The position numbers and the translations under genes were made by a program. From assembly GCA_023145435.1 (NCBI GenBank), contig JAGLDS010000003.1, positions 64,276-128,275 on the forward strand: a stretch of DNA of 64,000 nt, in the 5' to 3' direction. Each line of letters starts with the position of its first letter. Position 1 is the stretch's first letter. The notes under the pieces are model-generated. The model was given only the letters and a program-made list of their open reading frames with translations. It searched no databases and had not been told where the DNA came from. Of this stretch, positions 10,560 through 31,302 are shown one piece after another. The stretch comes from Clostridiales bacterium. Lineage in GTDB: Bacteria; Bacillota; Clostridia; DUPQ01.

Positions 10560-10898
10560 TTTTGATACCTCCTAGGACAAATTTTACTAATATATAAAAA
10601 TAATATTGTTTAAAATAAGGTGTTTAACACAAAGCAGGTATATTACATTATTATTATGGAAGTCCTAAAGTGAGATTCAAAGTAGATACAATCGATCAAA
10701 AACTTAAATTGTACAAACTAAATATTTTTGACAACACTATAGTACACCAAAGGTAATAGTATTTTCAAGAGTTTTTGTTATTTTTTTAACATACTTTTCA
10801 ATTTTCATGGTTTGCTTCTATCTAAATTACTATTTTTATAAAAAAATGATGTATAATAAAAAGTGTAGGGGGGATGTTCTTTATGAATATAAAAACTC

Positions 10899-12425: not shown

Positions 12426-12428
12426 GTA

Positions 12429-13550
12429 ATGAAAGTACCATTTAATCAACCATACATTGCTAAGAATCAGGATAAATATTTAAAAGAAGCTGCTAGGTTA
12501 GAAACTGATTACCTTAGTAAAGTACATGGGATATTTAAACAAGACTACCAAGTCGAAGATGTTATTTTAACAACTTCAGCTTCTAATGCTATTGAATTAA
12601 TTTTATTAGCTCTTGATTTACCTAAAGGTAGTGAAGTTATTATGCCTTCGTATACCTATCCTGCTGCATGTAATACTATTATTCGTTATGGTTACCAACT
12701 GGTTTTATGTGATAGTAATAGAAATACTTTAACAATGGAAGTAGAAGATATTATAGATAAGATTAGTAGAAAAACTTCTTGTATTATTCCCTGCCATTAT
12801 GGAGGGGCTTCATGTAATATGGATAAACTAATGGAAATTTGCCACAAAAAAAACATAAAAGTAATTGAAGATGCTGCACTTTCTTTTGGTGCAAAGTATA
12901 AAGATAGATACCTAGGAACTATTGGACATGCTGGAGTTATTAGTTTTGATAAAACAAAAAACATATCAGCTGAAACAGGAGGGATACTCTTGTTAAATAG
13001 TTTAAGTGATAAAACTGTAAAAAGATTACATTATTTGTATGATAATGGAACAAATAAATATGAGTTTTTACAAGGTGAAGTTAAAAATTATTCCTGGAAG
13101 TTAGCAGGATTAAGTGCTAAAATGTCCAATCTTCATGGGGCGTTATTATTTGCACAGTTAGAATATAAAGATGAAATATTTTTTAGAAGAAAAGTATTAT
13201 TTGAACAATATAAAAAAGGGTTAAAAAATGTATGTGTTAGGAATCATTGGCACTTACCTATAATTAATAGTTATAACGAAAATAACTATCATGTGTTTTA
13301 TTTAGTCTTAAATAATAATGCAAGGCGAGAAAAATTACGTATATATTTATTAGATAGAGAAATAAAAGCACAAACACATTATCAACCATTGCACTCTTCT
13401 TCAATGGGAGAAAATATAGGTTATAATTTTGTTGATTTTCCTAACACAAATCATATTACAAATTGTGTATTAAGGTTACCTCTTAACCCTATGTTATCAT
13501 CGGAGCAAATTGACTATGTCATAGAAAGTATCAAGGAATTTGCTTCATGA
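12429..13550 (+). CDS. DegT/WecE-family PLP aminotransferase (NDP-4-keto-6-deoxyhexose aminotransferase-like)
   Basis: ISFDKTKNISAETGG (PLP lysine block), NGTNKYEFLQGEVKNYSW, HYQPLHSS. All resemble WecE/ArnB-type enzymes. Confidence 0.75.
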   Translation: MKVPFNQPYIAKNQDKYLKEAARLETDYLSKVHGIFKQDYQVEDVILTTSASNAIELILLALDLPKGSEVIMPSYTYPAACNTIIRYGYQLVLCDSNRNTLTMEVEDIIDKISRKTSCIIPCHYGGASCNMDKLMEICHKKNIKVIEDAALSFGAKYKDRYLGTIGHAGVISFDKTKNISAETGGILLLNSLSDKTVKRLHYLYDNGTNKYEFLQGEVKNYSWKLAGLSAKMSNLHGALLFAQLEYKDEIFFRRKVLFEQYKKGLKNVCVRNHWHLPIINSYNENNYHVFYLVLNNNARREKLRIYLLDREIKAQTHYQPLHSSSMGENIGYNFVDFPNTNHITNCVLRLPLNPMLSSEQIDYVIESIKEFAS

Positions 13551-14275
13551 GAGAGAAGATATCTGTAGTTGTACCAATCTATAATAGTGAAAAAACAATT
13601 AGAAAGTTATTAAACAGATTACATCTTGTTCTTTATAATTTTAATGATTATGAAATTATTTTAATTGATGACTGTAGTCATGACCAAAGTTATAAAGTTA
13701 TTAAGGAAAGCAATATAACTAATACTACATATATACGATTGTCAAAAAACGTGGGACAACAGCTAGCTACCTTCTATGGATTAATGCAAACATCAGGTGA
13801 TTATGTAATTATTATTGATGATGATTTAGAACAAAATCCTGAAGATATTGTGAAACTGTATAGTGAAATAAAAAAAGGGTTTCATGTAGTTTATGGTATT
13901 GATACAAAGGTTAAACAAAAAAAACTAATTAGATCAATTGGTTCATCATTAAGAGATTGGTTGTTTAACAGACTAACAAATAAACAAAAAAACATTTTAG
14001 TTAGTAGTTTTAGAATTATGGATAGACAATTGGTTAATAAAGTACTTTTAGCAGATTGCAAATTTATTTACCTGTCCATGGAAATATTAAAAAACACTAA
14101 TCTTGTTGGAAATGTAGCTATAACATATGAGAAAAACAAGGAATCTAATTATCACTTGTTATCATTAATAAAAATTTGGTGGATGATTTATCTATATTAT
14201 GGCAAGTGTAATATGTTAAAAATATTTAGAAAAAAATTACAACCATTTATTATTGAAGAAAGAAGCATATCATGA
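13547..14275 (+). CDS. Family-2 glycosyltransferase (polyprenyl-phosphate sugar synthase-like: ArnC/GtrB/CsbB type)
   Basis: VVVPIYNSEKTI N-terminus, the DxD in IIIDDDLEQNPEDI, and a hydrophobic C-terminal segment. The start overlaps the upstream stop (ATGA). Confidence 0.7.
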   Translation: MREKISVVVPIYNSEKTIRKLLNRLHLVLYNFNDYEIILIDDCSHDQSYKVIKESNITNTTYIRLSKNVGQQLATFYGLMQTSGDYVIIIDDDLEQNPEDIVKLYSEIKKGFHVVYGIDTKVKQKKLIRSIGSSLRDWLFNRLTNKQKNILVSSFRIMDRQLVNKVLLADCKFIYLSMEILKNTNLVGNVAITYEKNKESNYHLLSLIKIWWMIYLYYGKCNMLKIFRKKLQPFIIEERSIS

Positions 14276-15546
14276 AAATTATGGTATTAGGTGGTGGTAG
14301 TTGCCAGTTAAACTTAATCAAAGAGCTAAAAAAAAGAAACCACTATGTTATTTTAATTGATTATCTTGTTAGTCCATTAGCAAAACTACTAGTTGACATA
14401 CACCTTCAAATTAGCACATTTGATAATGAAGGGGTTTATTTAGTAGCAAAGAAATATAATATTGAGGGAATAGTTACTTTAGGAACTGATCAACCAGTTC
14501 TTACTTGTGCATATGTAGCTAAACGATTACACCTTCCATTCTATTTAACAGAGCAACAAGCTTTAGAAGTAACAAATAAATTACATATGAAAAAGATTTT
14601 TACAAAGAACCAAATACCCACAGTAAAGTATGTCTTGCTACCAAGTGATTTTAGAGATGAAATGATAAAAAAACTAGTTTTTCCCGTTATCATGAAACCA
14701 GTTGATTCACAAGGACAGAGAGGTATTTTTAAGTGTGAATCAATTAATGATATTAGAGAAAAGATAAAAAAAACATTAGTATATAGCCGTGAAAATGTAG
14801 TGCTTATTGAAGAGTATTACCCAAATGATGAGATTACAATTAATGGTTGGTTAGAAAATGACCAACTTACTATATTATCTGTTGTAGATAGAGTGACAAT
14901 AAATAATACAAGAAGTGTTGGAGTATGTTTGTGTCATAATTTTCCCTCTGTCCATTTAAAAACAAATTATGACCAAATAGAAAAGTTAACAAAGAAAATC
15001 ATAAAAGCATTTTTACTAAAAAATGGACCAATCTACTTTCAATATTTGTTAGGGGATAAGGGAATCAAAGTAAATGAAATTGCCATGAGAATTGGTGGAG
15101 CATATGAAGATTTAACCATGCCTATTATTAGTCAAATTGATATACTTGAATTACTAATTACAAAATTAGAAAAAAAAGATTATAATACCTCACTTTTAAA
15201 AAAATATAATTTGGCAGAGAATCAACAATTTATTTCAACACAACTATTTTTCTGCCATGCTGGACAGGTTAAATCGATGACACCAATAGAGCAAATCAAA
15301 AAAGAAATTGGTGTTACATATGCTGATTACATAATAAAACCTGGAGATGAAATCGGATCAATTAATAATGCTACAGCAAGGGTTGGGTATTTTATTGTAA
15401 CTGGAACATCCTATACTGACCTTATTAAAAATATTAATAATACTTTTGACAAATTACAAGTTTTAGACCAAAATGGACATAATCTGATTATTAAGTATAA
15501 AGACTATAATCAAAAATATATGTTTTTTAGTGAGGATTCAAGTTGA
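14272..15546 (+). CDS. ATP-grasp family ligase
   Basis: MKIMVLGGGSCQ Rossmann-like start, VIMKPVDSQGQRGIF (ATP lysine plus flexible loop), VLIEEYY, NEIAMRIGG. ATGA overlap with the upstream gene. Confidence 0.7.
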   Translation: MKIMVLGGGSCQLNLIKELKKRNHYVILIDYLVSPLAKLLVDIHLQISTFDNEGVYLVAKKYNIEGIVTLGTDQPVLTCAYVAKRLHLPFYLTEQQALEVTNKLHMKKIFTKNQIPTVKYVLLPSDFRDEMIKKLVFPVIMKPVDSQGQRGIFKCESINDIREKIKKTLVYSRENVVLIEEYYPNDEITINGWLENDQLTILSVVDRVTINNTRSVGVCLCHNFPSVHLKTNYDQIEKLTKKIIKAFLLKNGPIYFQYLLGDKGIKVNEIAMRIGGAYEDLTMPIISQIDILELLITKLEKKDYNTSLLKKYNLAENQQFISTQLFFCHAGQVKSMTPIEQIKKEIGVTYADYIIKPGDEIGSINNATARVGYFIVTGTSYTDLIKNINNTFDKLQVLDQNGHNLIIKYKDYNQKYMFFSEDSS

Positions 15547-16943
15547 ATAATAGCAAAAGAGTAATTCACATCATTATTGGTATCTTCTTATTTGTAATTT
15601 GTGTATTTATATTACCAAGAGATTTGTTTGATTTATCAATGAGGTACGTCGTTGCCACTATGATAGTTATGATTTATTGGTGGATAACACGACCTATTCA
15701 CTTAGCTGCTACTGCTCTACTACCAATCTTGGTTAATGCAATTTTTATAATGGCTCCAATGAATACTATTCTTGACGATTACTTTAGTTCGATTGTAGTT
15801 TTAATTATTGGTGCAAATATTTTATTAGCTTCATGGAGTTTGTGGCAATTAGATAAAAGAATTGCGCTAACTTCATTGTCTTTAATTGGAACAAAAGTTA
15901 ATCAACAAATTATAACATGGTTTATTTTATCTGTTATTTTAAGTATGTTTTTACCTAATGTAGTAGTTGTAGCGGCTCTATGTCCTATTGCTTTTTCCAT
16001 GATGAAATACTGCTCAACAGAGCAAGTAGATTACACAAAAAGTAAGACTTTGAATTTATTGCTTATATCTATTGTTTGGGGAGCGGGATTAGGTGGCTTT
16101 GGAACGCCGCTGGGTGGTGCTATGAATTTAGTGGTAATTAGTCATATTGAAGATTTTATTGATAGAGAATTTTTATATATTTCATGGACTGCAAATGTTA
16201 TTGTCTTTTTAGCGCTGATTACAATTGCAATTATTGGTTATTTACTATTATTAAAAAAAGATGTTAAACATTTAGTAGGGTCTAGACAATTCTTCTTAAC
16301 AAAATTACATGACATGGGTAAAATGAGTAAAGGTGAGATAATTTCTCTTGTTTTATTCATACTAGCTTTATTAATGGCATTTACCAGACCGTTATATAGT
16401 AAATTATTACCAAACCTACAACCACAATATGTTTTTTTAATTTTAGCTTTTATTTCGTTTTTTATTAAAATAGATAATAAACGATTAATGACATGGCAAG
16501 TAGCTGTTAAAAATATACACTGGAGTTTAATTATTTTATTTTCAGGAGGATTGGCCATTGGAAAACTATTAGTTAGTAGTGGTGTAGCAACTTCATTAGC
16601 ATCTTTAGTATCAACTTCTGGGATATCAAATGAATTATTGTTATTGGCAGTTTTCATTGCTCTTGGTATGTTTTTGTCTAATACCTCAAGTAATACAGCA
16701 GCTAGTGCAATACTAATTCCTATTGTTATTAGCGTAACAGTTGACTTATCACTTAATACTATGGCTTATATCTTTGTTTCAGCAATTGCCTGTAATATAG
16801 CTTATATATTACCAACATCAATTAGAGCCGTTCCAGTTGATTATGGTTTAGATACTAAGTTCATGCTTAAAAAGGGATTAATGGCTATTGTAATCTCTTA
16901 TGTATTACTTCTTGTAAGTGGGTATATATTTATTTTACTATAA
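15543..16943 (+). CDS. DASS/SLC13-like (ArsB/NhaD superfamily) anion permease
   Basis: 466 aa polytopic protein. C-half hairpin motif FLSNTSSNTAASAILIP (SNT motifs). TTG start overlaps the upstream stop (TTGA). Confidence 0.6.
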   Translation: MNNSKRVIHIIIGIFLFVICVFILPRDLFDLSMRYVVATMIVMIYWWITRPIHLAATALLPILVNAIFIMAPMNTILDDYFSSIVVLIIGANILLASWSLWQLDKRIALTSLSLIGTKVNQQIITWFILSVILSMFLPNVVVVAALCPIAFSMMKYCSTEQVDYTKSKTLNLLLISIVWGAGLGGFGTPLGGAMNLVVISHIEDFIDREFLYISWTANVIVFLALITIAIIGYLLLLKKDVKHLVGSRQFFLTKLHDMGKMSKGEIISLVLFILALLMAFTRPLYSKLLPNLQPQYVFLILAFISFFIKIDNKRLMTWQVAVKNIHWSLIILFSGGLAIGKLLVSSGVATSLASLVSTSGISNELLLLAVFIALGMFLSNTSSNTAASAILIPIVISVTVDLSLNTMAYIFVSAIACNIAYILPTSIRAVPVDYGLDTKFMLKKGLMAIVISYVLLLVSGYIFILL

Positions 16944-16980
16944 ACAGTAGAATGTACTAAATAAAAAAAGAATAGATGGT

Positions 16981-17205
16981 TTGAAAATGAAAATTATTGA
17001 TTGTTTTGGAGAAATATGTCCTATTCCAGTATTAAGAATAGAAGAAGAAATTAAAAAGGCAAATGCTGGTGATTTTTTCATGATTGTTGTTAATCATAGT
17101 TGTGTTGTACAGTCAATTAAGGATAAGTACAGCAGTCCAAATATAAAAATGAAAATAGATGAAGTAATGAATGGGGTATGGGAGATTACTTTTGAGATTA
17201 CATAA
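16981..17205 (+). CDS. TusA/SirA-like sulfur-carrier protein
   Basis: DCFGEICPIPVL (the conserved Cys-Pro-x-Pro of TusA). 74 aa; the start may instead be ATG 16987. Confidence 0.75.
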   Translation: MKMKIIDCFGEICPIPVLRIEEEIKKANAGDFFMIVVNHSCVVQSIKDKYSSPNIKMKIDEVMNGVWEITFEIT

Positions 17206-18108
17206 TTAACAAAAACTATTTGACCCTTTTTCAGCAAACCATTTAACAAATGCTTTAACGTGATTACTAGGATTCTTTTTAAATATAAGGGCTACTTCTA
17301 AATCCATATCAAAGTCTGGAACAGTAATTTCTTTGAACTGTTTCTTATATAATTCTTCTTTAACAGAGATATATGGTAAAAATGCTATTCCATATTTTCT
17401 AGCTACTAGCATTTTTGCTCCTTCTATTCCTTCAACTTCTAATTTACAGTTTAAGCTACTTTTACTATAGCCTAAACTTTTTAAATTTCTTGTTAAATTA
17501 TTAGTGATTTCACTTCTACTAGTAAAGGTTATAATACAAGCATTAAGTAATTGATCAACAGACATACTGTCAGGAACTTCACTATCGTTAAGACCAATAA
17601 GAACTATTCGATTTACTCCTGTTTCAGTTGATAATACATCGATATTTCCTTTCATCTCAAAATGAGATTTATAGGAAAATCCAATATCGCATATATTATT
17701 TTCAACATCAGTTATTATTTCGTCAGAAAAACTAGTTAGTAATTCATATTTTAAATATGGATTTTCTCGCTTAGCTTCAATTAGAGTACAAGGAAGTGCA
17801 TAATCAGCAATTGAGGGGCAGGCTTCTATTTTTAAAGTAATATTTTCTTTATCATTATTTTCAATTTCTGTAAGCATTTCGTCATAAGTCCGTAAAATAT
17901 TTTTAGCATACAAAAGTACTACTTCTCCGGTTTTTGTCAGAGCAACACCTTTATTACTTCGTTCTAAAAGTTTTTTTCCTAAATCTATTTCTAATTTTTG
18001 AAGTTGCTGGCTTAATGCAGATTGGGAAATATGCTCTTGCTTAGCTACTTTACTTATACTACCAGCCTTAGCTATTAAATAGAAAAATCTCATTGACTCA
18101 GTATTCAT
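17206..18108 (-). CDS. LysR-family transcriptional regulator
   Basis: N-terminal wHTH FFYLIAKAGSISKVAKQEHISQSALSQQLQKLE, 300 aa. Divergent from the YeeE operon; its stop abuts the tusA-like stop with a 0-nt gap. Confidence 0.85.
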   Translation of the reverse strand: MNTESMRFFYLIAKAGSISKVAKQEHISQSALSQQLQKLEIDLGKKLLERSNKGVALTKTGEVVLLYAKNILRTYDEMLTEIENNDKENITLKIEACPSIADYALPCTLIEAKRENPYLKYELLTSFSDEIITDVENNICDIGFSYKSHFEMKGNIDVLSTETGVNRIVLIGLNDSEVPDSMSVDQLLNACIITFTSRSEITNNLTRNLKSLGYSKSSLNCKLEVEGIEGAKMLVARKYGIAFLPYISVKEELYKKQFKEITVPDFDMDLEVALIFKKNPSNHVKAFVKWFAEKGSNSFC

Positions 18109-18135
18109 AGATACCCTTTCTTGTTTGTTTCTTAC

Positions 18136-18162
18136 GCTATATTATAGCATAAGTTTTGCTAT
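18136..18162. promoter_or_regulatory. Three GCTAT/ATAGC half-sites in the lysR / yeeE divergent intergenic region (candidate LysR operator)
   Basis: GCTATA-t-TATAGC is a perfect palindrome (18136-18148). ATAGCA-N7-TGCTAT is a perfect inverted repeat (18144-18162). The two share the central half-site. Confidence 0.4.
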
Positions 18163-18276
18163 TAAAAAATCTTATACTGCATTATAAAGTGTAATGGAAC
18201 AATAGGTCAATAAAGTGTTAGAATAAATGAGAGTGTTAAATAATTAACAATTGAATTATAGAAAGGATGTGAAATA

Positions 18277-18966
18277 GTGACAACGGGTATTCAAAGATCT
18301 TCAAGTAGTACAAGAAGAAGTCCTAGAAAGAAAAAGAAAAATCAAATTCCATTTGCTATTGGATTATTAATTGTGATTATCCTAATTGGCATATGGTTAG
18401 CAACAAAAGAAAATCACCAGGCACTTTATTGGATGTTAGGATTGGCTTTTGGTTTTATTCTTCAACGTTCAAGATTTTGTTTTACAGCATCAATGAGAGA
18501 CCCTTATCTTACTAGAAGCACATCAGTAACAAAGTCTGTACTTATTGCTTTTGCTATTACTACAATTGGTTTTGCTGCAATTAAGTATGGTTACTTTATA
18601 CAAGAGTTAGCAATTCCAGGACAAAGTTATATAGCACCAATTAGTATTGCGACAGCAGTGGGTGCTTTTATGTTTGGTATTGGAATGGTAATTGCTGGTG
18701 GTTGTGCATCTGGAACTCTTATGAGAATTGGCGAAGGATTTTGGATGCAAGTGTTGGCTTTATTCTTTTTCGTAGTTGGATCCCTTTGGGGAGCTCATGA
18801 CTATGGATGGTGGATGAGGAATTTCATGCTTGCAGGAAAAAGAGTATTTCTACCTGACTACTTAGGTTGGTTTGGAGGAGTATTGTGTAATTTATTGATT
18901 ATAGCTGTTATTTATGTAATTGCACATAAATATGGAAATAAGAAAAGTGAAAGCGAATTACATTAA
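18277..18966 (+). CDS. YeeE/YedE-family sulfur (thiosulfate/selenium) transporter, N-terminal half-protein
   Basis: GTG start 8 nt after AAAGGATG. Conserved cysteine loops RSRFCFTAS and AGGCASGTLMR. Basic Ser/Arg/Lys-rich N-tail. Confidence 0.75.
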   Translation: MTTGIQRSSSSTRRSPRKKKKNQIPFAIGLLIVIILIGIWLATKENHQALYWMLGLAFGFILQRSRFCFTASMRDPYLTRSTSVTKSVLIAFAITTIGFAAIKYGYFIQELAIPGQSYIAPISIATAVGAFMFGIGMVIAGGCASGTLMRIGEGFWMQVLALFFFVVGSLWGAHDYGWWMRNFMLAGKRVFLPDYLGWFGGVLCNLLIIAVIYVIAHKYGNKKSESELH

Positions 18967-18988
18967 TAGTTAAATGGAGGAAAGTAAA

Positions 18989-19219
18989 ATGAGTAAAGAA
19001 GTAGTATTAGATTGTTTTGGAGAAGCGTGTCCAGTTCCATTGGTAAAAGCTGAAAAAGCACTGGAAAAATTAGAGATTAACGATATATTAATCGTGCAGA
19101 TAGACCATAGTTGTGCAATGAAAAATGTACCAGAGTGGGCTAGAAAACAAGGACATAACGTTGAAATCGAAGAAATCGATGATGGCGAATGGGAAGTAAT
19201 TATTGAAAAAGTAAAATAA
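18989..19219 (+). CDS. TusA/YeeD-like sulfur-carrier protein
   Basis: DCFGEACPVPLV motif. I prefer ATG 18989 (GGAGG at 18976-18980, 8-nt spacing) over the track's ATG 18974, which overlaps the SD. Confidence 0.8.
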   Translation: MSKEVVLDCFGEACPVPLVKAEKALEKLEINDILIVQIDHSCAMKNVPEWARKQGHNVEIEEIDDGEWEVIIEKVK

Positions 19220-19253
19220 TATATTTTATTTTTAAGTAGGAGGTTTTACAATT

Positions 19254-19802
19254 TTGAAAGCGTTTTTTGATAAAATAAAACAAAATGAATTTTATAAAAT
19301 GTGGTTTAAAGATGCTTTGCCATATATTACTGGTGCTATTTTATTATCAGTATTTCAAATTGTCACTTTTGCAACAACAAAAAATCCTTGGGGTGTTTCA
19401 GGTGTATTTGCTAATTGGGGTGCATGGTTATATCAATTAATTGGTGGATCTGTGGATAATTGGTATTATTTCAGTTCTCCAGGAGCTCAAGCAACACTAG
19501 AAGCTGGTATTATCAATCATGGGTCTACATGGAGAAACATTGGAATTATTTTTGGAGCATTATTTGCAACTTTGGCAGCATCTGGATTTAAAATTAAGAA
19601 GTTAAAATCATATAAACAAGTAATTGCAGCAAGCTTAGGTGGTTTACTAATGGGCTATGGAGCTAGAATAGCATTTGGATGTAATATTGGTGCTTTATTT
19701 AGTGGGATATCCTCTATGTCTTTATCAGGATGGGTATTTGGGGCATTTATGTTTATAGGTGCAATTGTTGGAAGCAAGTTATTAGTTAAGTACTTTATGT
19801 AA
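19254..19802 (+). CDS. YeeE/YedE-family transporter, C-terminal half-protein
   Basis: TTG start 9 nt after AGGAGG. Conserved RIAFGCNIGALFSG cysteine loop. 182 aa membrane protein. Confidence 0.75.
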   Translation: MKAFFDKIKQNEFYKMWFKDALPYITGAILLSVFQIVTFATTKNPWGVSGVFANWGAWLYQLIGGSVDNWYYFSSPGAQATLEAGIINHGSTWRNIGIIFGALFATLAASGFKIKKLKSYKQVIAASLGGLLMGYGARIAFGCNIGALFSGISSMSLSGWVFGAFMFIGAIVGSKLLVKYFM

Positions 19803-19820
19803 TAGAAAAGGAAATTAAAA

Positions 19821-21062
19821 ATGGCAAGAGAAAAAAAAGTAGAACAATATGATGTAGTTATTATAGGAGGAGGAGCCTCTGGATTAACTGCAGGTATATA
19901 TTGTGGGAGAGCACGTTTAAAGACATTAATAATCGAACAAGCATTAGTTGGTGGAATTGCCACAAATACTAATGATATTGAGAATTATCCAGGCTTCCCT
20001 GAAGGAATTACAGGAATAGGGTTAATGAATCTTTTTCATCAGCAAGCAAAAAAATTCGATGTTAAATTTAAATTAACAAATGTAAAAACTATCGATTTAA
20101 GTGGAGACATAAAAATAGTTGAAACATTTAGAAATAGATTTGAAGCAAAAACTGTAATAATTTGTAACGGAAGTGTTCCGCGATTAACAGGAGCAATTAA
20201 CGAAGAAAAGTTTTTAGGAAAAGGTATTGCTTTTTGTGCAACTTGTGATGCTGCTGCTAATACTGATAAGGAAGTCTTAGTTATAGGATCAGGAGACGCT
20301 GCAATTGAAGAAGGTATATTCTTAACTAAATTTGCAAGTAAAGTTATGGTGTCAATTATACATGATGAAGGTAAATTTGATTGTAATGAAATTGCAAAAG
20401 CTGCAGCATTAGCTAATCCAAAAATGGAATTTTATCACAACACAGTAGTTGAGAGTTATGAAGGAGATAATGAATTAGATAAAGTTATTCTAAAGAACTT
20501 AAAAACAGGTGAAAAAAAAGCAATTGAATGTGCTACTTGTTTTCTATTCATTGGTTATCTTCCTAATACTAGTTTATACAAAGATATTATAGATATGACA
20601 GATAGAGGTTATATAATAACTGATGAAAATATGAAGACGAATATCCCAGGTGTTTTTGCAGCAGGAGATGTGAGGGACAAACTTCTAAGACAAGTTGCAA
20701 CTTGCGTTGGTGATGCATCAATTGCTGGAGTTATGGCTGAAAAACACATTGCTGAAAGTGAAATATTTGAAGAGCAAATCATGGCAAAAGATGGAATTGC
20801 TTATGTTTATAATGCTATTGAATCAGATCAGAGATATTTTTTATCGTTTATAGAAGAAATTGAAGAAGTCTATAAAGATTATTGTTACCACAGAGTTGAC
20901 ACATATAAGTCAGAAGGTATAGCTGATAGATTAGGTGTTGAATCGTGTCCATCAGTTGTATTTATTAAAGATGGAAAAGTAGAAAAAATTATCTGTGGTG
21001 ATAAATGTAATAAAGACGAAGTACGAGATATTATTAAAAACAATGAAGAAACTAAGAAATAG
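19821..21062 (+). CDS. Thioredoxin-reductase-like flavoprotein fused to a C-terminal Cys-less thioredoxin-fold domain
   Basis: DVVIIGGGASGLTAG (FAD), the redox pair in FCATCDAA, and a second dinucleotide site VIGSGDAAIEEG followed by IIHDEG rather than HRR. The C-terminal about 100 aa have a Trx-like layout but no CxxC. Confidence 0.7.
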   Translation: MAREKKVEQYDVVIIGGGASGLTAGIYCGRARLKTLIIEQALVGGIATNTNDIENYPGFPEGITGIGLMNLFHQQAKKFDVKFKLTNVKTIDLSGDIKIVETFRNRFEAKTVIICNGSVPRLTGAINEEKFLGKGIAFCATCDAAANTDKEVLVIGSGDAAIEEGIFLTKFASKVMVSIIHDEGKFDCNEIAKAAALANPKMEFYHNTVVESYEGDNELDKVILKNLKTGEKKAIECATCFLFIGYLPNTSLYKDIIDMTDRGYIITDENMKTNIPGVFAAGDVRDKLLRQVATCVGDASIAGVMAEKHIAESEIFEEQIMAKDGIAYVYNAIESDQRYFLSFIEEIEEVYKDYCYHRVDTYKSEGIADRLGVESCPSVVFIKDGKVEKIICGDKCNKDEVRDIIKNNEETKK

Positions 21063-21063
21063 T

Positions 21064-21981
21064 ATGAAAGGATGGGTTACAGTGAAAAAAATTATCATTT
21101 ATATACTTATTATAGTAATGATTTCATCGATATTAACAGGTTGTGTTAATTATGATTTTAATGAAACTAACCAGTATATAGTTACACCAAAAGAGGCACT
21201 TAACCTACTAGAAGAAGGCGCAATATTAATTGATGTAGAATCTAGTGAAGATTATGGACTAGTTCATATTGATGGAGCTATTAATATACCTATGGCGTCG
21301 TTAGTTATTAACGAACCATATAACAATATGTTACCAGAGGCTTTTCAAATTGAGCAAGTTATGGGAAAAGCGGGAGTCAGCGAAAATGACACTATTTTAG
21401 TTTATGATCATGGCTCAAATATGAAAGCTGCCAGAGTTCAATGGACAATCAATATGTATGGTAATTTTAATGTTTTTGTTGTTAGCGGTGGCTTAGATGC
21501 ATTAAAAGATGAAAAAGTAAAAACATCTATGGTAGCATCTACTTTACCTTTAACAACTTACCAAACATCTGATAAACAAAAATCATTAATTGTTACATTA
21601 GAGTATGTTAAATCGATTATTAATATACCAGAAGATAAAACAATCATTATAGACACAAGAAGTGTTGAAGAATTCATGGAAGGGACTATTCCCGGAGCAT
21701 GTAACATTGAATATACCTGGAATAACTATGGAAGTGGACAGTATAAATCATCTAGAGATATTCAAATAACATATCTAGACAAAGATATTACTCCTGATAT
21801 GAAAATTATTGTTTTTTGTAAAACATCTATCAGAGCAGCACAAACTTATACGGCACTAAAAGATGCTGGTTATAAAGATGTCAGAGTTTATGATGGTGCA
21901 TGGTTAGAATTTGTAGAAAAAGAAACCCCACAAGTTCCAGCTGATGATATTGTGTCACCATCTTCAAACGACGCTTCATAA
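21064..21981 (+). CDS. Tandem-rhodanese (thiosulfate sulfurtransferase-like) lipoprotein
   Basis: Lipobox ILTGC after a hydrophobic h-region. Domain 1 lacks the Cys (VYDHGSNMKAAR); domain 2 has the active loop FCKTSIRAAQ. The start is ATG 21064 or GTG 21082; the track's 20995 start overlaps the upstream gene. Confidence 0.75.
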   Translation: MKGWVTVKKIIIYILIIVMISSILTGCVNYDFNETNQYIVTPKEALNLLEEGAILIDVESSEDYGLVHIDGAINIPMASLVINEPYNNMLPEAFQIEQVMGKAGVSENDTILVYDHGSNMKAARVQWTINMYGNFNVFVVSGGLDALKDEKVKTSMVASTLPLTTYQTSDKQKSLIVTLEYVKSIINIPEDKTIIIDTRSVEEFMEGTIPGACNIEYTWNNYGSGQYKSSRDIQITYLDKDITPDMKIIVFCKTSIRAAQTYTALKDAGYKDVRVYDGAWLEFVEKETPQVPADDIVSPSSNDAS

Positions 21982-21997
21982 AGAAAGGTAGGGAGAT

Positions 21998-23587
21998 ATG
22001 AAAAGGTTTACGGCTATATTAATTACCGTATTATTGGTAGTAGCACTTGTTAGTTGTTCTGGAGGAACAGCTTTAGAAGATGCTGCAACAAACTGTTTTG
22101 CAGACTTTCCAGGATCAAGAATTGTTACATGGGTAGATGTAGCTGCAAAAATTGATGCAGGAGAGGAACCATTTATCTTAAGTATCAGGCAAACAGCAGA
22201 TTATGAAACTAGTCATATAACAGGAGCCTATAATGCAGCTTGGGGAACAGATTTAGCAGAAAAAGTTGATCAGCTTCCAACAGATGAAACTGTATATGTA
22301 TACTGCTATTCAGGACAAACAGCAGGACAAACAGTTGCTTTATTAAATATGATGGGTGTTGATGCTGTATCTATTAAATCAGGTTTTAATCTTGGAATTA
22401 AAGTAACTGAAGGTTATGAGACATATGTAGATACTGTAACTGTAGAATTACCAGATGCAGGTGCTAAATTTGATAAAACAGTATTAGAATATGTACAAGA
22501 TTACTTTAATGCTATTCCAGATAGTGGAAGTAATATTGTGGTTTCTAACATTATTGCACCAAAAATTGATGCAGGCGATGTGGTAGTTGTTGATATTAGA
22601 AAAGCAGATGATTATACAATTTCACATATTGATGGTGCAGTAAATATTCCATTTGGCGAAAATATGCAAGAAAATTTTGAAAACTTACCAACTGACAAAC
22701 AAATAGTTGTTACATGTTATTCAGGACAAACAGCAGGACAAACAGTTGCAGTTATGAGAGCACTAGGCTATGATGCCATTTCATTAAAATCAGGAATGAA
22801 AGGTTGGGTTCCTTATGTAACTTCAGTAGCTGCTAATAATTATTTTGCAGACTATCCAGGTTCTAGAATCATAACTTGGACTGACTTATTTACAAAAATT
22901 GATAATGGAGAAAATCCATATATTTTAAGTATTAGACAAGAAGACGTATATAGTGAAAGCCATATTGTAGGTGCAAAACTTGCAGGATGGGGACCAGATC
23001 TAGCAGCCGCTGTATCAATGTTACCAACAGATGAAACTGTATATGTTTATTGTTATTCAGGACAAACAGCAGGACAGACAGTTGCCTTATTAAACATGTT
23101 AGGAATTGAAGCTGTTTCTATAAAATCAGGTTATAATAAAGGTGCAATAAAGACTGAAGGCTATGAAGCATATGTTGAAACTACATCTAATTCGTTAGAA
23201 GATGCAGGTGCTACATTTGATTCAGTTATGTTAAAAGAAGTAAAAGCTTACTTTGAGGCTGTAGCTGATAATGGCAACTTTAAAATTGGATGGGATGATA
23301 CGCAAACAGCAGTTGAAGCTAATGAAGCTACTGTAATAGATATTAGGACAGCAGATGATTTTGCTTTAGGACATATTGCTGGAGCAATTAGTATTCCATT
23401 TGGCGAAAACATGCAAGAAAACTTTATAGATTTACCAGATGGTAAATTAATAATTGCTTGTTATTCAGGCCAAACAGCAGGACAAGCTACTGCAGTATTA
23501 AAAATGTTAGGATATGATGCAGTTTCATTACATTATGGAATGAAAGTTGGTTGGATTCCTAATGGATATCCAGTGGTAACAGACTAA
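21998..23587 (+). CDS. Lipoprotein with four catalytic rhodanese domains
   Basis: Lipobox ALVSC. There are four CYSGQTAGQ active-site loops (YVYCYSGQTAGQTVALL, VVTCYSGQTAGQTVAVM, YVYCYSGQTAGQTVALL, IIACYSGQTAGQATAVL). Confidence 0.8.
   Translation: MKRFTAILITVLLVVALVSCSGGTALEDAATNCFADFPGSRIVTWVDVAAKIDAGEEPFILSIRQTADYETSHITGAYNAAWGTDLAEKVDQLPTDETVYVYCYSGQTAGQTVALLNMMGVDAVSIKSGFNLGIKVTEGYETYVDTVTVELPDAGAKFDKTVLEYVQDYFNAIPDSGSNIVVSNIIAPKIDAGDVVVVDIRKADDYTISHIDGAVNIPFGENMQENFENLPTDKQIVVTCYSGQTAGQTVAVMRALGYDAISLKSGMKGWVPYVTSVAANNYFADYPGSRIITWTDLFTKIDNGENPYILSIRQEDVYSESHIVGAKLAGWGPDLAAAVSMLPTDETVYVYCYSGQTAGQTVALLNMLGIEAVSIKSGYNKGAIKTEGYEAYVETTSNSLEDAGATFDSVMLKEVKAYFEAVADNGNFKIGWDDTQTAVEANEATVIDIRTADDFALGHIAGAISIPFGENMQENFIDLPDGKLIIACYSGQTAGQATAVLKMLGYDAVSLHYGMKVGWIPNGYPVVTD
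22091..23584 (+). repeat. Internal tandem duplication (2 x about 745 nt, each encoding a rhodanese domain pair) inside the four-rhodanese gene
   Basis: Unit 1 (about 22091-22835) starts NCFADFPGSRIVTW; unit 2 (about 22836-23584) starts NNYFADYPGSRIITW. Near-identical about 38-nt cores (tattcaggacaaacagcaggacaaacagttgc) lie at 22301-22338, 22711-22749, 23048-23085 and 23457-23493. Confidence 0.85.
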
Positions 23588-23607
23588 TTATAGAAAATTT
23601 ATAGAAA

Positions 23608-23641
23608 AGAGCTTTCTGTTTTAAGAAGGCTCTTTTTTTTT
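23608..23641 (+). terminator. Rho-independent terminator after the rhodanese genes
   Basis: agagctttc / 8-nt loop / gaaggctct (9 bp with one G-U), followed by a T9 run. Confidence 0.75.
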
Positions 23642-23827
23642 GTAATTCATTGTTTAACTTTATTATCATATACTTTATTATTTTTCTACTAACTATTATT
23701 TTTTGTATAACAAATTTACTTTAAAAGAATTTTAGGTACGTACAAAATAAAGTTGTTTCAAAAGAAAGTTAATGATAAACTCAAATAAATGAAGTGACAA
23801 ACCAATAAGACAAAATGGGGGGAAAGT

Positions 23828-25831
23828 ATGATTGTATCAAAAAATCAAGATTTTATTCCAAAGAAAATTTCAAGTTGGTGGTGTACTATTGAAGATATTT
23901 TATGGTCTGAAAAAAAGATTGTAGATAAAATAAAAAGAAATGCGGAAGCGTTTGCTAAAGCAGATATTGATACTGCTATAAATTTCGGATTTCATGTACG
24001 GTTTGATTTTTCGAATTATTTTGGACAGCTCCATGGTTATTACGCTAATGTGTGTGAAGAGTTACATAAATATGGTATTAGATTCATGGATCATTATTCT
24101 TGTAATCATGTACAACGGCCTAGGAATATTGATGAGTTTAATAAAGTACATAAAAATCATAGACACCATGTTTTGCTTTTTCACGACCAAGTTGCAGCAA
24201 AACATGCCCAATACGAGGGACATTATTTTAATGATTTATGCGAGGTTGATTTAAGAGATGGTAGTAGAGGTTATTCAAAAACTTATCAATTAGAAGTATT
24301 TTGCCATAATAACCCAGGATTTTTAGACATGCATCAAAAGTATCTAAAAAGGCTACTTAGCGAAGTTCCAATGGATGGAATAGAAGTTGATGATATGTGT
24401 GATTATGCAGGATTGGTTACTTGTGGATGTAAATATTGTAGAGATAGATTTAAAAAAGAATATGGTCAAGAAATCCCGTCTTACGATGATAAAAGTTTTT
24501 GGGGAGATATATCAAATAATAATGAATATATGTGGGGTAATTATAATAACCATATTTTTAGAGATTGGTTAAGAATGAAATCCGATTCTGTTGCAGAGCA
24601 TCTAAAAATGATTAAAGAAACAGTAGGAGAAATACCTTTGATGACGTGTTGTTCAAGTTCTGGTCCAATAATACTTAATAGTTTATCTTTAAATCTTGAA
24701 AAGATGGCTCCTCATCTTGATTTCTTTGTTCTAGAAAATTGTGGAATTGACATTAGTAGTGTTAATTGGACTAAAATGGATGCTGAAGCATTACATCAAA
24801 AAGATATTGCAACAAAAAATAAAGCTCCTGCACTAGCAATAAGTTATTCGATTTATGAACAAAGTGCATATTTAGGATGGGCTCTTAGTAGATTTTGGGG
24901 TGTTGGTAGTTGGAGTAGTACTTTAAATCAAAGACTGGAAAAAGACCCTGATGATGCAAAAGAAATTTTTGATATTATAAGTAAATATAATAATTGGGAA
25001 ACTGCAAATAGCAATTATGATTGTAACGAGGGCGTAGACATTGAAGAAGTAAGGTTAGTTAGCAATAAATATTGTAGAGAAAATGGATGGCGAGACGACA
25101 GTGGATTTGAGCAATGGGACAAAATAAAAAAATGGTCTGATTATCTAATGAAGAGAAATATAGGTTATAGGGTTTTAAGAGCAAATGAATTATCAAACGC
25201 AAAAGAGTTATGTAGTAATGCTTCTCCACTGATTCTTGATGGATTAGGCTGTTTATCAGATGATCAATATGTGGCAATTTCTAAATATTTACAACTAGGA
25301 GGGATTGCATATATATCACTTCCTTTTGGAACACATGATGAAAAAGGTTTTAAAAGAAGTAAATCATTATTTCATAAAATTGACGAAAGTAATTTTGAAA
25401 ACTTAACAATTATTGAGACATCAACTATATCTAATCCACTTGATAAAATAATTGAAAAAAAATTACTAGAACCACTTATATGGCAAATCAAGGGAGATGA
25501 TAGATGGGTATTAAGAGCAAGGAAACATGGTTCTAAAATAATGATTCATTTATTAAATAGCGCTTTAAAAGCTAAAGAACATCCCACTTTAAAAGACAGA
25601 AATGGTAATTCGATTTTAAAAGAATTTGAGTCAGATATAACAGAAAATAAATTAGTATATAGATTTAATTCATCAATATTAAAATTGACTAATATAGAAC
25701 TTTTAAGTCCAGAGTTAGGAAGTAAAAGAATAGATGTAAACATCATTGAGATTAGTAAAGAAATTTCTGAAATACACTTAGATTTATCTAATATTAAATT
25801 ATATGCTGTAATACAAGAAAAAGAACAATAA
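23828..25831 (+). CDS. Hypothetical cytoplasmic TIM-barrel glycoside-hydrolase-like protein (distantly GH42-like)
   Basis: 667 aa, no signal peptide. The CGCKYC (C-x-C-x2-C) cluster resembles the GH42 zinc site. NNPGFLDMHQKYLKRLLSEVPMDGIEVDD is typical of GH-like TIM barrels. The family assignment is tentative. Confidence 0.4.
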   Translation: MIVSKNQDFIPKKISSWWCTIEDILWSEKKIVDKIKRNAEAFAKADIDTAINFGFHVRFDFSNYFGQLHGYYANVCEELHKYGIRFMDHYSCNHVQRPRNIDEFNKVHKNHRHHVLLFHDQVAAKHAQYEGHYFNDLCEVDLRDGSRGYSKTYQLEVFCHNNPGFLDMHQKYLKRLLSEVPMDGIEVDDMCDYAGLVTCGCKYCRDRFKKEYGQEIPSYDDKSFWGDISNNNEYMWGNYNNHIFRDWLRMKSDSVAEHLKMIKETVGEIPLMTCCSSSGPIILNSLSLNLEKMAPHLDFFVLENCGIDISSVNWTKMDAEALHQKDIATKNKAPALAISYSIYEQSAYLGWALSRFWGVGSWSSTLNQRLEKDPDDAKEIFDIISKYNNWETANSNYDCNEGVDIEEVRLVSNKYCRENGWRDDSGFEQWDKIKKWSDYLMKRNIGYRVLRANELSNAKELCSNASPLILDGLGCLSDDQYVAISKYLQLGGIAYISLPFGTHDEKGFKRSKSLFHKIDESNFENLTIIETSTISNPLDKIIEKKLLEPLIWQIKGDDRWVLRARKHGSKIMIHLLNSALKAKEHPTLKDRNGNSILKEFESDITENKLVYRFNSSILKLTNIELLSPELGSKRIDVNIIEISKEISEIHLDLSNIKLYAVIQEKEQ

Positions 25832-25846
25832 AAAGGAGAAGCACTA

Positions 25847-26863
25847 ATGAAGAGTTATATATATAAAGACAATGTGTTTGAAATTGAAGGAGCATTATCA
25901 ATTTATGATGGTAATGATTTTACACAACCATGGCGAATTGATTTTAATAGAAAACAATTGTTTCCATATTTAAATGATGATTTTCAAGGAGGTGCTTGTT
26001 CAGGTGTTAGAATTGCTTTTGTATCTGACTGCACTCTATTGGCTATTGATATTGTAGAAACCCATGAAAGGGATACGGGTTTTCATGATGTCATGTTAAT
26101 TGATCTTGTTATTGATGGAAAGTTGATTGAAACACTACCTCTTAATCAAGGTAAAGGAGTCTATACATTTGCAAAATTATCAATTGGATTTAAGAAAGTG
26201 GAATTATGGCTTGATCATGCTTTTCCAGTTAAGTTTACTAAATTATTGATTAATGATAATGCTATGATGAAAAAAAGCAAAAGTCCAAAATATCGTTGGG
26301 TTCACTATGGTAGTTCTATTAGCCATTCTGTGCGGGCAAAAACTCCTGCTACAATCTGGCCGGGTATTGTTGCATTGCAAGAAAAAATTCATGTTACAAA
26401 TTTAGGATTTGGTGGAAATTGTATATTAGATCCAATAATAGGTCATGAAATGAGTCAACTAAATGCTGATATATTTACTTTAAAGTTAGGGATTAATGTC
26501 CATGGCGGCCGACTAAATATACGAAGTTTTGAGCCATGTATTATTGGATTAATTGAAACAATTAGGCAAAATCATATAAAAACACCAATTGTGTTAATTT
26601 CACCTATTATTGCTCCTGAATATGAAAATACTAAGGGATTATCTGAGATGAGTCTATCTGATATGAGAGATATTTTACAATTAGTTGTTACAAATTATAA
26701 TAATCTAGGAGATAAAAATATCTATTATGTAGATGGATTGGAAATTATGGGACAAGAAGGGCTGAAATATATGCCAGATAATGTTCACCCTGACGGACCG
26801 GGTCAATTTATACTGGCAGATAATTTTATTAAGAATGTTGTGAATAAATATTTTTATAGATAG
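25847..26863 (+). CDS. SGNH/GDSL-type hydrolase (carbohydrate esterase-like) with an N-terminal beta-sandwich domain
   Basis: Block I VHYGSSISHS (Ser nucleophile), block III GINV, block V DNVHPDG (DxxH). Confidence 0.65.
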   Translation: MKSYIYKDNVFEIEGALSIYDGNDFTQPWRIDFNRKQLFPYLNDDFQGGACSGVRIAFVSDCTLLAIDIVETHERDTGFHDVMLIDLVIDGKLIETLPLNQGKGVYTFAKLSIGFKKVELWLDHAFPVKFTKLLINDNAMMKKSKSPKYRWVHYGSSISHSVRAKTPATIWPGIVALQEKIHVTNLGFGGNCILDPIIGHEMSQLNADIFTLKLGINVHGGRLNIRSFEPCIIGLIETIRQNHIKTPIVLISPIIAPEYENTKGLSEMSLSDMRDILQLVVTNYNNLGDKNIYYVDGLEIMGQEGLKYMPDNVHPDGPGQFILADNFIKNVVNKYFYR

Positions 26864-27023
26864 GAATATTTAATGAAATTTAGAAATATATATCAAATAA
26901 AAGAAATAAATGGATTAAGAAACAAATAGATGAAATTATGGTATATTATCAATGGATGGGTTGATGATGTTGATAAACAAACAACCTATCTAGAATCTAT
27001 ATGTGATGTGGGGTGAATAAACA

Positions 27024-28046
27024 ATGTTTGAAAAACTATATCAACCTAGTAATTTTATAGCTAAAAGAGAAAGTAGTTATGATTTAACAGGAGGCAATGA
27101 AGACAAAAAGGAAATTGCTTCAGGAGAAACCTTGATTTTAGCTAATCTTGAGGGACCAGGAAAAATTGTTCACATCTGGTGTACTATTGCAGCTGAGCAA
27201 TTGCCTTTATTTAATAGAATGCTAGTGTTACGGTTTTATTGGGATAATGAAGAAACGCCTAGTGTAGAGTGTCCTATTGGTGATTTTTTTGGAGCAGGTC
27301 ATGGGATGGAAGCTGATTGTAAAGCGTTACCGATTAATTCGGTTAATGGTGGAAAAGGAAGAAATATATTCTTTGAAATGCCATTTGCTAAAAAGGCACG
27401 ATTAACAGTAACTAATGAAGGAAAATTTCCAGTTCGTTCTTTTTACTATAACATTGATTGGCAACAACATAGTAGTCTTCCTAAAGATATTATGTATTTT
27501 CATGCAATATATAAACAAGAATACCCAACAACAATTGGAAATGATTATATAATCGCTGACATTGTTGGACAAGGAAATTATGTGGGAACAGTACTAAATG
27601 TAGAAAAAGCAGAAAAACCTGGTTGGTATGGTGAAGGTGATGAAAAAATCTATATTGATGGAGAAGATTACCCTTCTATTTGGGGAACAGGAACAGAAGA
27701 CTACTTTTTAACTGCATGGTATCCTCATGTGTACCATTCTGCTTATTCAGGTTTTTCAATATATGAAGGTATTAATAGACCTGGAAACAAGTTGACAGGA
27801 TATCGCTTTCACATACAAGATCCAATTCCTTTTACAAAGAAATTAAAATTTGTAATTGAACATGCTTGGACCATAAAAAATGAAAAATTTTGTGATAATT
27901 ATTCTTCAGTAGCTTATTGGTATCAAATAGAGCCACATAGTATTAGAGAACCTTTTCCAGATGCTAATAGTAGGAGACCAAAATATCCTGAAAATGTCCT
28001 CTATGATGATCATTGGGAAAAAGGGAATAATAAAAAGGGATATTAA
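27024..28046 (+). CDS. DUF2961 / glycoside hydrolase family 172-like protein
   Basis: WYGEGDEKIYIDGE ... GTGTEDYF motif block characteristic of DUF2961. 340 aa, no signal peptide. Confidence 0.65.
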   Translation: MFEKLYQPSNFIAKRESSYDLTGGNEDKKEIASGETLILANLEGPGKIVHIWCTIAAEQLPLFNRMLVLRFYWDNEETPSVECPIGDFFGAGHGMEADCKALPINSVNGGKGRNIFFEMPFAKKARLTVTNEGKFPVRSFYYNIDWQQHSSLPKDIMYFHAIYKQEYPTTIGNDYIIADIVGQGNYVGTVLNVEKAEKPGWYGEGDEKIYIDGEDYPSIWGTGTEDYFLTAWYPHVYHSAYSGFSIYEGINRPGNKLTGYRFHIQDPIPFTKKLKFVIEHAWTIKNEKFCDNYSSVAYWYQIEPHSIREPFPDANSRRPKYPENVLYDDHWEKGNNKKGY

Positions 28047-31284: not shown

Positions 31285-31302
31285 TTAGGAGGAAGAGAAA
31301 AA

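Follow-up and report, generated by a model that had tools for sequence, protein, structure and literature searches.

Here we analyse a gene cluster in a 64-kb stretch of Clostridiales DNA (contig JAGLDS010000003.1; the whole stretch of 64,000 nucleotides (nt), about 30% G+C, is called the window, and all coordinates are positions in it). Rhodanese lipoproteins, a two-piece YeeE channel, TusA carriers and a thioredoxin reductase (TrxR)-like flavoprotein stand there beside the genes of a probable envelope-sugar pathway. At this locus the window is 98% identical to the Clostridia metagenome-assembled genome (MAG) CSMAG_185. A preliminary description, focused on positions 16981-23587, had listed eight genes with their cysteine motifs and lipoboxes, and all of these were recovered from the list of open reading frames (ORFs) and the Pfam and NCBIfam scans. 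The locus is best read as two operons over about 12.7 kb (10899-23638). The upstream operon (10899-17205) has six genes, for a GT-C glycosyltransferase, a WecE-like aminotransferase, a GT2 glycosyltransferase, an ATP-grasp ligase, a DASS symporter and a TusA protein, with 4-nt overlaps joining the aminotransferase, GT2, ATP-grasp and DASS genes. In the YeeE operon (18277-23587) the co-directional genes follow one another at short gaps, as first noted, over a range of 1-34 nt rather than 16-34 nt. The LysR gene is indeed divergent from the YeeE operon; it is convergent with the gene for TusA 1, which had been taken for a flanking gene and in fact closes the six-gene upstream operon. The first description had the sulfur genes right and missed the glycosylation and transporter operon, a Rex-type operator and the loss of the NADPH site in the flavoprotein.

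The genes from YeeE to the rhodaneses are probably one transcript. They are co-directional and co-conserved, and the intrinsic terminator behind the last rhodanese gene is the only plus-strand terminator-like site that a terminator scan returned within 10000-24500, with none on that strand between 18277 and 23587. No Rfam family reached its gathering score anywhere in the window, and a riboswitch or other known RNA control was rejected on that ground.

With the flavoprotein as query and one genome per species, we found 60 loci in other genomes and mapped thirteen window proteins onto all of them; 26 loci reach at least 9 kb to both sides of the flavoprotein gene and form the full-flank set of Table 1. 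The order YeeE half, TusA, YeeE half, flavoprotein recurs in every one of the 60 loci long enough to show it, and the conservation of this core order and of its cysteines is far beyond chance. Between the halves stand one to three tandem TusA copies (two or three in L004, L017, L021-L023, L027, L030, L035, L040, L045, L061, L064 and L065), and L021 has an additional TusA-TusA-TrxR-like set about 8 kb downstream, at 56% identity. The flavoprotein scan places the carriers in Christensenellaceae/Christensenellales, Oscillospiraceae, Peptostreptococcaceae, Limiplasma, Erysipelotrichaceae, Mariniplasma/Acholeplasmataceae and MAGs of Spirochaetales. Isolates with the locus include Wukongibacter sp., Hominibacterium faecale, Marasmitruncus massiliensis and Clostridium homopropionicum, and a separate protein search added Geosporobacter ferrireducens.

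The sulfur and sugar genes stay together through changes of layout. The sugar module takes at least three arrangements: downstream of the rhodaneses, divergent upstream of the TusA/LysR pair, or co-directional upstream as in the window. The rhodanese genes mostly adjoin GT-C, co-directionally or divergently, the window layout being the exception, and the convergent pair of first TusA and LysR is kept in most loci. When the ATP-grasp ligase was used as query, sulfur genes were present on four of five new usable contigs (L066, L068, L069, L070). The fifth, L067, is without them; near its ATP-grasp homologue it encodes a metallo-beta-lactamase/rhodanese fusion (5704-6747) with the architecture of persulfide dioxygenase-rhodanese proteins. 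Because co-localisation has outlasted rearrangement, there is good evidence that the sulfur and sugar modules are functionally linked.

Table 1. Features of the locus in window coordinates, with their recurrence in the full-flank loci
Feature	Position	Strand	Match or motif	Full-flank loci
GT-C	10899-12425	+	Pfam PMT and PMT_2 above gathering score	20/26
WecE-like DegT aminotransferase	12429-13550	+	NF008687, 340 bits; PDB WecE	15/26
GT2, ArnC-like	13547-14275	+	Pfam Glycos_transf_2	20/26
ATP-grasp ligase	14272-15546	+	Pfam ATP-grasp_4, LAL_C2	21/26
DASS symporter	15543-16943	+	Pfam Na_sulph_symp, CitMHS	
DASS or SsuA-like ABC importer				18/26
TusA protein 1 (first TusA)	16981-17205	+	CPIP; Pfam TusA, 45.7 bits	20/26
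LysR regulator	17206-18108	-	Pfam HTH_1, LysR_substrate	22/26
YeeE N-half	18277-18966	+	RSRFCF, GGCASG; Pfam Sulf_transp	
Second TusA	18989-19219 (ORF opens also at 18974; 18989 likelier)	+	CPVP; Pfam TusA, 85 bits	
YeeE C-half	19254-19802	+	FGCNIG; Pfam Sulf_transp	
TrxR-Trx flavoprotein	19821-21062	+	CATC; Pyr_redox_2	
Two-domain rhodanese lipoprotein	~21064-21981	+	Lipobox LTGC, loop CKTSIRA	
Four-domain rhodanese lipoprotein	21998-23587	+	Lipobox LVSC, four CYSGQTAGQ loops	
Lipoprotein rhodanese, any				18/26
Intrinsic terminator	23603-23638	+	15-pair stem, then T-run; closes sulfur operon	

The channel is encoded by two genes (229 and 182 aa), with a TusA gene between them in all 60 loci, and is divided in the central region of the single-chain protein. 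Its halves match positions 1-152 (105 bits) and 163-310 (114 bits) of the Sulf_transp profile (PF04143), and when joined they are colinear with StYeeE (PDB 6LEO). In the 6LEO alignment the N-half cysteines occupy the positions of StYeeE C22 and C91 and the C-half cysteine that of C293, which bears out the earlier proposal of a split YeeE and shows that the three functional cysteines of TsuA are kept. C68 and C143 of the N-half are conserved in 55-56 of 56 sequences, and C143 of the C-half in 63 of 63. Scores against NF052577 (79 and 51 bits; cut-off 400) and NF041049 (66 and 31 bits; cut-off 645) fall short. Division of such proteins has been described before, in the short split relatives PmpAB (PMC11582611) and in an archaeal YedE encoded by two genes (PMC5322559).

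Both TusA proteins show the motifs D-C-x-G-x-x-C-P-x-P and (D/N)-H-S-C, all three cysteines of which are invariant. They are C8, C13 and C41 in TusA 1 (43-44 of 44 sequences) and C14, C19 and C47 in the second TusA, between the halves (70 of 70), where C19 is the CPVP cysteine. YeeE and YeeD import and decompose thiosulfate, and the E. coli YeeD requires two cysteines, C13 in CPxP and C39 (PMC11073785); the extra third cysteine of the proteins studied here sits five residues before CPxP. Against the YeeD/TsuB model NF041048 the second TusA reaches 45.9 bits (cut-off 147.5).

Sulfur or selenium had both been offered as the cargo, with mention of a link of YedE/YedF pairs and a LysR regulator to selenium utilisation. 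That link is accurate, as the YedE, YedF and LysR_Se families are tied to the selenium trait (PMC5322559); the selenium option itself is not supported. The best NCBIfam models are YedE/FdhT for both channel halves and the N-terminal domain of YedF for the TusA proteins, tied with YeeD/TsuB in the case of the second TusA. The halves score 101 and 95 bits against NF033796 (cut-off 350), while TIGR04112 yields 33 (cut-off 200), the remaining selenium-family score is 47 (cut-off 110), and the best LysR model, LysR_Sec_metab (NF040786), gives 145 (cut-off 250). YedF joins a SirA-like and a DsrE-like domain over about 194 aa, and the TusA proteins, at 74-81 aa, match positions 1-68 of its profile only. 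No selD, selA, selB or tRNA-Sec was found in the 64-kb window or in the annotated related loci (L001-L004 and L066-L070).

The closest structure to the flavoprotein (Pyr_redox_2, 146 bits) is that of Deinococcus TrxR (2q7v, 2e-83), and its score against TIGR01292 is 313.4 bits (cut-off 343.45). The CATC motif is present in 59 of 60 homologues. At the HRRxxxRA position of TrxR, whose arginines we take to hold the 2'-phosphate of NADPH in the E. coli enzyme, the family consensus reads HDEGKMDC (HDEGKFDC in the window; kept in 52-60 of 60), and the acidic residues in place of these arginines make NADH the probable donor and NADPH, at any rate, an unlikely one. C188, inside the altered motif, and C240 both lie in the pyridine-nucleotide domain; they are invariant in 59-60 of 60 homologues and absent from ordinary TrxR. 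When 29 C-terminal tails were combined into a profile, it aligned with thioredoxins from end to end; leaving de novo designs aside, the best thioredoxin match was an ancestral reconstruction (E = 4e-8). The tail had been called cysteine-less, which is true of its function, the CGPC position reading D-x-x-S/Q and no cysteine being conserved, and untrue to the letter, as the window tail has four. Run alone against a library of 1.84 billion representatives, it gave 49 matches, mostly short fragments and uninformative on family size.

The suggestion that this reductase is private to the locus is strengthened by a normal TrxR and a thioredoxin-domain protein elsewhere in the window, which mark the locus enzyme as an extra, dedicated one. 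The canonical 324-aa TrxR (30310-31284, +) opens a set at 30310-32454 (+) that continues with a 211-aa Thioredoxin_3 protein (to 31938) and a ferritin-like protein, and that is likely the housekeeping thioredoxin system, separate from the locus enzyme.

The best available clue to the role of the TrxR-Trx protein is its exchange, in Sporosalibacterium faouarense and Clostridium sp. DL1XJH146, for an unrelated enzyme whose chemistry is known. There the TrxR-Trx and inter-half TusA genes are absent from an otherwise same locus, which keeps the split YeeE, LysR, TusA, aminotransferase, GT2, ATP-grasp, ABC importer, GT-C and two rhodaneses, together with an RmlB-like gene in both and RmlA in Sporosalibacterium. 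These variant loci add a full-length YeeE followed by a 565-aa CoA-disulfide-reductase/rhodanese fusion, which matches Bacillus anthracis CoADR-RHD (3ICR) at 3.6e-144 and also the Shewanella Npsr and CoAPR structures. Npsr-type enzymes convert persulfides to H2S with NADH and are tied to dissimilatory sulfur reduction (PMC7969121). A replacement of this type in two genera fits the reductive-release step that the preliminary description had placed at the end of its relay.

In the two lipoproteins that end the operon, Pfam Rhodanese matches two stretches and four stretches, respectively. The active loop of the two-domain protein lies in its second domain, with the catalytic cysteine present in 31 of 31 sequences. 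In the multi-domain family all 77 loops found by pattern search read CY(S/T)GQT(A/S), and all homologues but one have two or four such domains. Both window proteins and nearly all homologues carry a signal peptide and a lipobox, and they are predicted to be exported and lipid-anchored. The count of five catalytic rhodanese cysteines on lipoproteins is thus upheld, with near-universal signal peptides and invariant catalytic cysteines. The NCBIfam family rhoda_near_glyco (NF045521) was considered and set aside as a different family, the window protein and three homologues scoring 28-102 bits (cut-off 145).

It is probable that the YeeE operon is under Rex control. A perfect 6-4-6 palindrome, GTGTTAAATAATTAACAA (18233-18250, +), lies 26 nt before the YeeE start codon and differs at one position from TTGTTAANNNNTTAACAA, a typical Rex site of Clostridiaceae (PMC9600882). 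Sites with at most two mismatches occur in 20 of 44 LysR-YeeE intergenic regions, where shuffles predict 0.33 (an excess of about 60-fold), and in most of these 20 loci the site is no more than about 50 nt from the YeeE start codon. Across 1.09 Mb of locus DNA, 21 of 64 sites lie directly upstream of YeeE and 6 of 64 upstream of GT-C. Common DNA descent does not explain the sharing, as the locus proteins are only 59-78% identical. Variant loci have Rex-like sites before their rhodanese genes, two in tandem in L068 and L070. Rex represses NADH-consuming pathways until NADH rises, and a Rex-type box would point to a redox-balancing role.

It is the cross-locus test alone that is convincing. Window-wide, Rex-like boxes number five against 2.7 expected, not above chance, and those elsewhere in the window were rejected as signal; they include a weak box, TTGTTATTTTTTTAACAT (10775-10792, +; two mismatches), between the GT-C operon and a hydrogenase operon. 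Another box, with one mismatch, lies at 60330-60347, 119 nt upstream of an ORF at 60466-62148. Near the LysR start codon there is a second perfect palindrome, GCTATA-T-TATAGC (18136-18148), which could be a LysR binding site.

The genes upstream suggest a pathway for an envelope amino sugar. Hydropathy and conserved residues give the GT-C protein, of the PMT/ArnT family, some 10-12 transmembrane helices and a conserved domain of around 135 aa at its C-terminus; a PDB sequence search found no match to it. The aminotransferase falls below the NF008687 cut-off of 375 bits and matches the WecE structures 6blg and 4piw at about 1e-59. Genes for RmlA and RmlB, with RmlB scoring over its curated cut-off, stand before it in Wukongibacter and Sporosalibacterium (L022, L066), and an RmlB-like gene alone does so in L069. 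Given the WecE-like enzyme and its RmlA/RmlB neighbours, the predicted sugar precursor is dTDP-4-amino-4,6-dideoxyhexose. The GT2 gene overlaps both of its neighbours by 4 nt, and its closest curated model is ArnC (91 bits; cut-off 529). The ATP-grasp protein, which has an L-amino-acid-ligase C-terminal domain and only weak PDB relatives, probably acylates the sugar amino group. One homologue, P0153 (L071, 771-2768), joins GT2 and ATP-grasp in a single 665-aa protein, on a 2.9-kb contig known from one read set. It was set aside, since it may be either a true fusion, which would support a shared pathway, or a frameshift at the usual 4-nt overlap. The importer gene is predicted to encode a Na+-coupled DASS anion symporter (TIGR00785, 135 bits, below cut-off), and many other loci have an SsuA/TauT-type ABC importer at its position. 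For that ABC importer a Sao transporter was rejected in favour of the NitT/TauT type, SaoA, SaoP and SaoX being the top matches and far below their cut-offs.

Taken together, the sugar module would probably make a polyprenyl-phosphate-linked, N-modified 4-amino-4,6-dideoxyhexose and attach it to an envelope acceptor. Mariniplasma, a genus of wall-less Mollicutes, keeps both rhodaneses with no sugar genes within reach (L018-L020, L057, L059), and walled carriers have GT-C beside the rhodaneses. This pattern, a correlation only, suggests a wall or envelope polymer, and not the rhodaneses themselves, as the site of the sugar, which would there serve the external rhodaneses. Some walled carriers (L024, L032, L034) have the core only, with neither rhodaneses nor sugar genes.

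Based on these observations we lean, a little beyond even chances, towards a locus for the uptake of external inorganic sulfur, oxidised or zero-valent (thiosulfate, polysulfide or sulfane sulfur), and for its intracellular reduction to sulfide. The two membrane-anchored rhodaneses, with their five catalytic cysteines, would bind or mobilise sulfur at the outer face, and the two-piece TsuA-like channel would pass it inward along three relay cysteines to a TusA of the TsuB/YeeD kind. The TrxR-type flavoprotein would then reduce TusA-bound sulfur to H2S via its CATC dithiol, probably with NADH, the degenerate thioredoxin domain probably being a docking module. The divergent LysR would act on the YeeE operon, and the Rex-type operator would couple expression to the NADH/NAD+ ratio. 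The pathway may in this way be at least partly an electron sink of fermentation as well as a source of sulfide, and the sugar module would work together with the external rhodaneses.

A precedent for this scheme in a fermenter is Thermotoga maritima, in which thiosulfate and S0 induce yeeE/dsrE/tusA along with a polysulfide/thiosulfate reductase of the cytoplasm that uses NAD(P)H; thiosulfate induces yeeE 42.6-fold, and the reduction relieves redox pressure (PMC9431562). Another redox-balancing system lies next to the locus in the window, an adjacency that is not conserved in other genomes. It is a three-gene operon (7091-10559, -), divergent from the GT-C operon, that encodes a group A6 [FeFe]-hydrogenase dependent on NADH (908 bits, above cut-off) together with subunits resembling NuoF and NuoE.

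Several points weigh against sulfur uptake and reduction as the function. The substrate, the direction of transport and the electron donor are all inferred, and YeeE has been shown to carry the thiosulfate ion, not a protein-bound persulfide. For the channel halves and LysR the curated model with the top score is that of a selenium-associated family, and for TusA such a model shares first place, all of them below cut-off. The palindrome before YeeE may be a LysR site rather than a Rex site, and some 24 of the 44 intergenic regions have no good box. Four full-flank loci consist of core genes alone, so rhodaneses and sugar genes are not obligatory, and the sugar module is left unexplained by uptake and reduction as such.

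A bolder reading is that the sulfur relay and the sugar module are one machine. GT-C would place a 4-amino-4,6-dideoxyhexose, modified by the ATP-grasp enzyme, on a wall or membrane polymer, and this sugar would let the rhodaneses capture anionic or insoluble sulfur through the Gram-positive wall. We offer this idea tentatively and regard it as doubtful; the sugar could in that case be a charge-neutralising or carrier group. The contrast between walled carriers, with rhodaneses beside GT-C, and wall-less Mariniplasma, with rhodaneses but no sugar genes, fits it. If it were true, fermenting Firmicutes would gain an unrecognised, Rex-controlled NADH sink running on external thiosulfate, polysulfide or S0.

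The alternative that survives best, unlikely as we judge it, is that the locus serves sulfur assimilation only, with a CysB/Cbl-like LysR directing the scavenging of thiosulfate, sulfonates or sulfane sulfur at sulfur scarcity and the sulfide going to cysteine synthesis. E. coli assimilates thiosulfate by way of TsuA/TsuB (PMC11073785), and a LysR regulator and an SsuA/TauT-type ABC importer or DASS symporter are at hand in the locus. The Rex-type operator, however, speaks for redox rather than sulfur control, and five external catalytic cysteines with up to three tandem TusA copies seem to give more capacity than a trace need would call for. The locus also has no cysteine-synthesis genes, and the two genera with the exchanged reductase use an enzyme type connected with dissimilatory sulfur reduction (PMC7969121).

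We give a smaller chance still to reactive-sulfur homeostasis or detoxification in the manner of cst operons, in which persulfides or polysulfides entering or arising in the cell would be removed, with the rhodaneses protecting the surface. Known sulfur-stress operons combine a CoA-persulfide reductase, sulfurtransferases and YeeE/YedE transporters (PMC13467558), and the variant loci carry such a CoAPR-type enzyme. Yet domain scans of the locus returned no CstR/BigR/SqrR-type sensor, sulfide:quinone reductase or persulfide dioxygenase, the carriers are strict anaerobes from sulfidic habitats, and lipoprotein rhodaneses and an envelope sugar module are foreign to cst operons.

It is very improbable, in our view, that the relay feeds the sugar module, the product being a sulfur-bearing glycoconjugate, such as a thiol- or sulfo-acylated amino sugar, and sulfide not the purpose. 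The tight co-localisation of the modules through rearrangements would fit this, as would the TusA gene that stands between them in every arrangement and the importer that directly follows ATP-grasp in many loci; but the locus has no known C-S bond-forming enzyme, both the core-only loci and the wall-less Mariniplasma loci do without sugar genes, and the reductases match enzymes that reduce persulfides or disulfides. Least probable is selenium acquisition of the YedE/YedF/LysR_Se type, with external rhodaneses binding selenium and the reductase delivering selenide: the best models are those of selenium-trait families (PMC5322559), but every score is far under its curated cut-off, the TusA proteins have no DsrE-like domain, the channel is colinear with the thiosulfate-carrying StYeeE and keeps all three cysteines, the sel genes and tRNA-Sec were not found in the window or in seven annotated loci, and a high-capacity design under redox control would be odd for a trace element.

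Beyond the terminator, 23828-28046 (+) encodes a 667-aa protein (no Pfam or NCBIfam match), a GDSL/SsfX3-like esterase and a DUF2961 protein, none of them conserved with the locus in other genomes. Elsewhere on the same strand are a sulfatase-family protein (36647-37999), a homologue of tRNA-queuosine alpha-mannosyltransferase (42386-43489; QTMAN_N plus GT1 domain), and three ORFs of 756, 515 and 560 aa (51774-54044, 57988-59535 and 60466-62148) with no Pfam match at E <= 1e-6.

The preliminary description had not recognised this architecture as a described system, and full-text literature searches likewise returned no description of it. Its parts are all from known families, and the logic of import, carrier and flavoprotein has precedents. 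What is unusual is the split three-cysteine channel, a TrxR with a dead thioredoxin domain and no NADPH site, the multi-domain surface rhodaneses, the probable Rex control and an obligate-looking pairing with an amino-sugar envelope pathway. Many fermenting anaerobes of guts, digesters and sediments make H2S from thiosulfate or sulfur with no known respiratory sulfur reductase. The locus would offer a compact, testable genetic basis for such H2S in Christensenellaceae, Oscillospiraceae, clostridia, Erysipelotrichaceae, Acholeplasmataceae and spirochaetes, and several of its carriers are in culture.

Among known systems, TsuA/TsuB of E. coli and Spirochaeta thermophila is alike in its Sulf_transp channel, colinear with StYeeE and bearing the same three cysteines, and in an adjoining small TusA-family partner with CPxP plus a second cysteine as in EcYeeD. 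There the channel is a single polypeptide of about 330-350 aa, whereas here it is split around the carrier gene. That gene occurs one to three times, and its product has an additional, third invariant cysteine; a dedicated flavoprotein and external rhodaneses are further members of the operon, and the scores stay under the NCBIfam thresholds for TsuA and TsuB. YedE/YedF/LysR_Se systems share the same three superfamilies, and in archaea YedE is also split (PMC5322559), but the proteins described here score below the cut-offs for those families, have no second YedF domain and lie near no selenium genes.

NTRC-type TrxR-Trx fusions and AhpF likewise join a TrxR module to a thioredoxin-fold domain; in the locus enzyme that domain has no redox cysteines, the NADPH arginines have become Asp/Glu, and C188 and C240 are added. 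Npsr/CoAPR enzymes and cst-like operons are similar in that rhodanese chemistry and transporters of the YeeE type go together with a flavoprotein disulfide reductase that uses NADH. Unlike them, the window enzyme is of the low-Mr TrxR class, with CATC, a degenerate thioredoxin domain and no CoA-dependent single-cysteine site, and the regulator is LysR, probably with Rex, and not CstR. T. maritima, as a fermenting anaerobe, combines YeeE/TusA import with a cytoplasmic NAD(P)H flavoprotein that turns thiosulfate or polysulfide into H2S as an electron sink (PMC9431562), but its genes are unlinked, its reductase is of the CoADR/NSR class, and external rhodaneses, LysR and a sugar module have no part in the system.

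The Arn and GtrB-GT-C pathways bring together a DegT-family aminotransferase, an ArnC-like GT2 and a PMT/ArnT-family GT-C, as the sugar module does, which differs in its predicted dTDP-4-amino-4,6-dideoxyhexose precursor, its added ATP-grasp ligase and its tie to a sulfur-trafficking operon. In Sud/Psr of Wolinella and with the periplasmic rhodaneses PspE and ExtH, a membrane system receives sulfur (for ExtH, selenium or tellurium) from a rhodanese-type protein outside the membrane. The rhodaneses of this locus share that predicted place outside the cytoplasmic membrane, but they are lipoproteins of the Gram-positive type, in which as many as four domains are active, and in place of a membrane molybdoenzyme or cytochromes their acceptor would be a channel and a cytoplasmic reductase.

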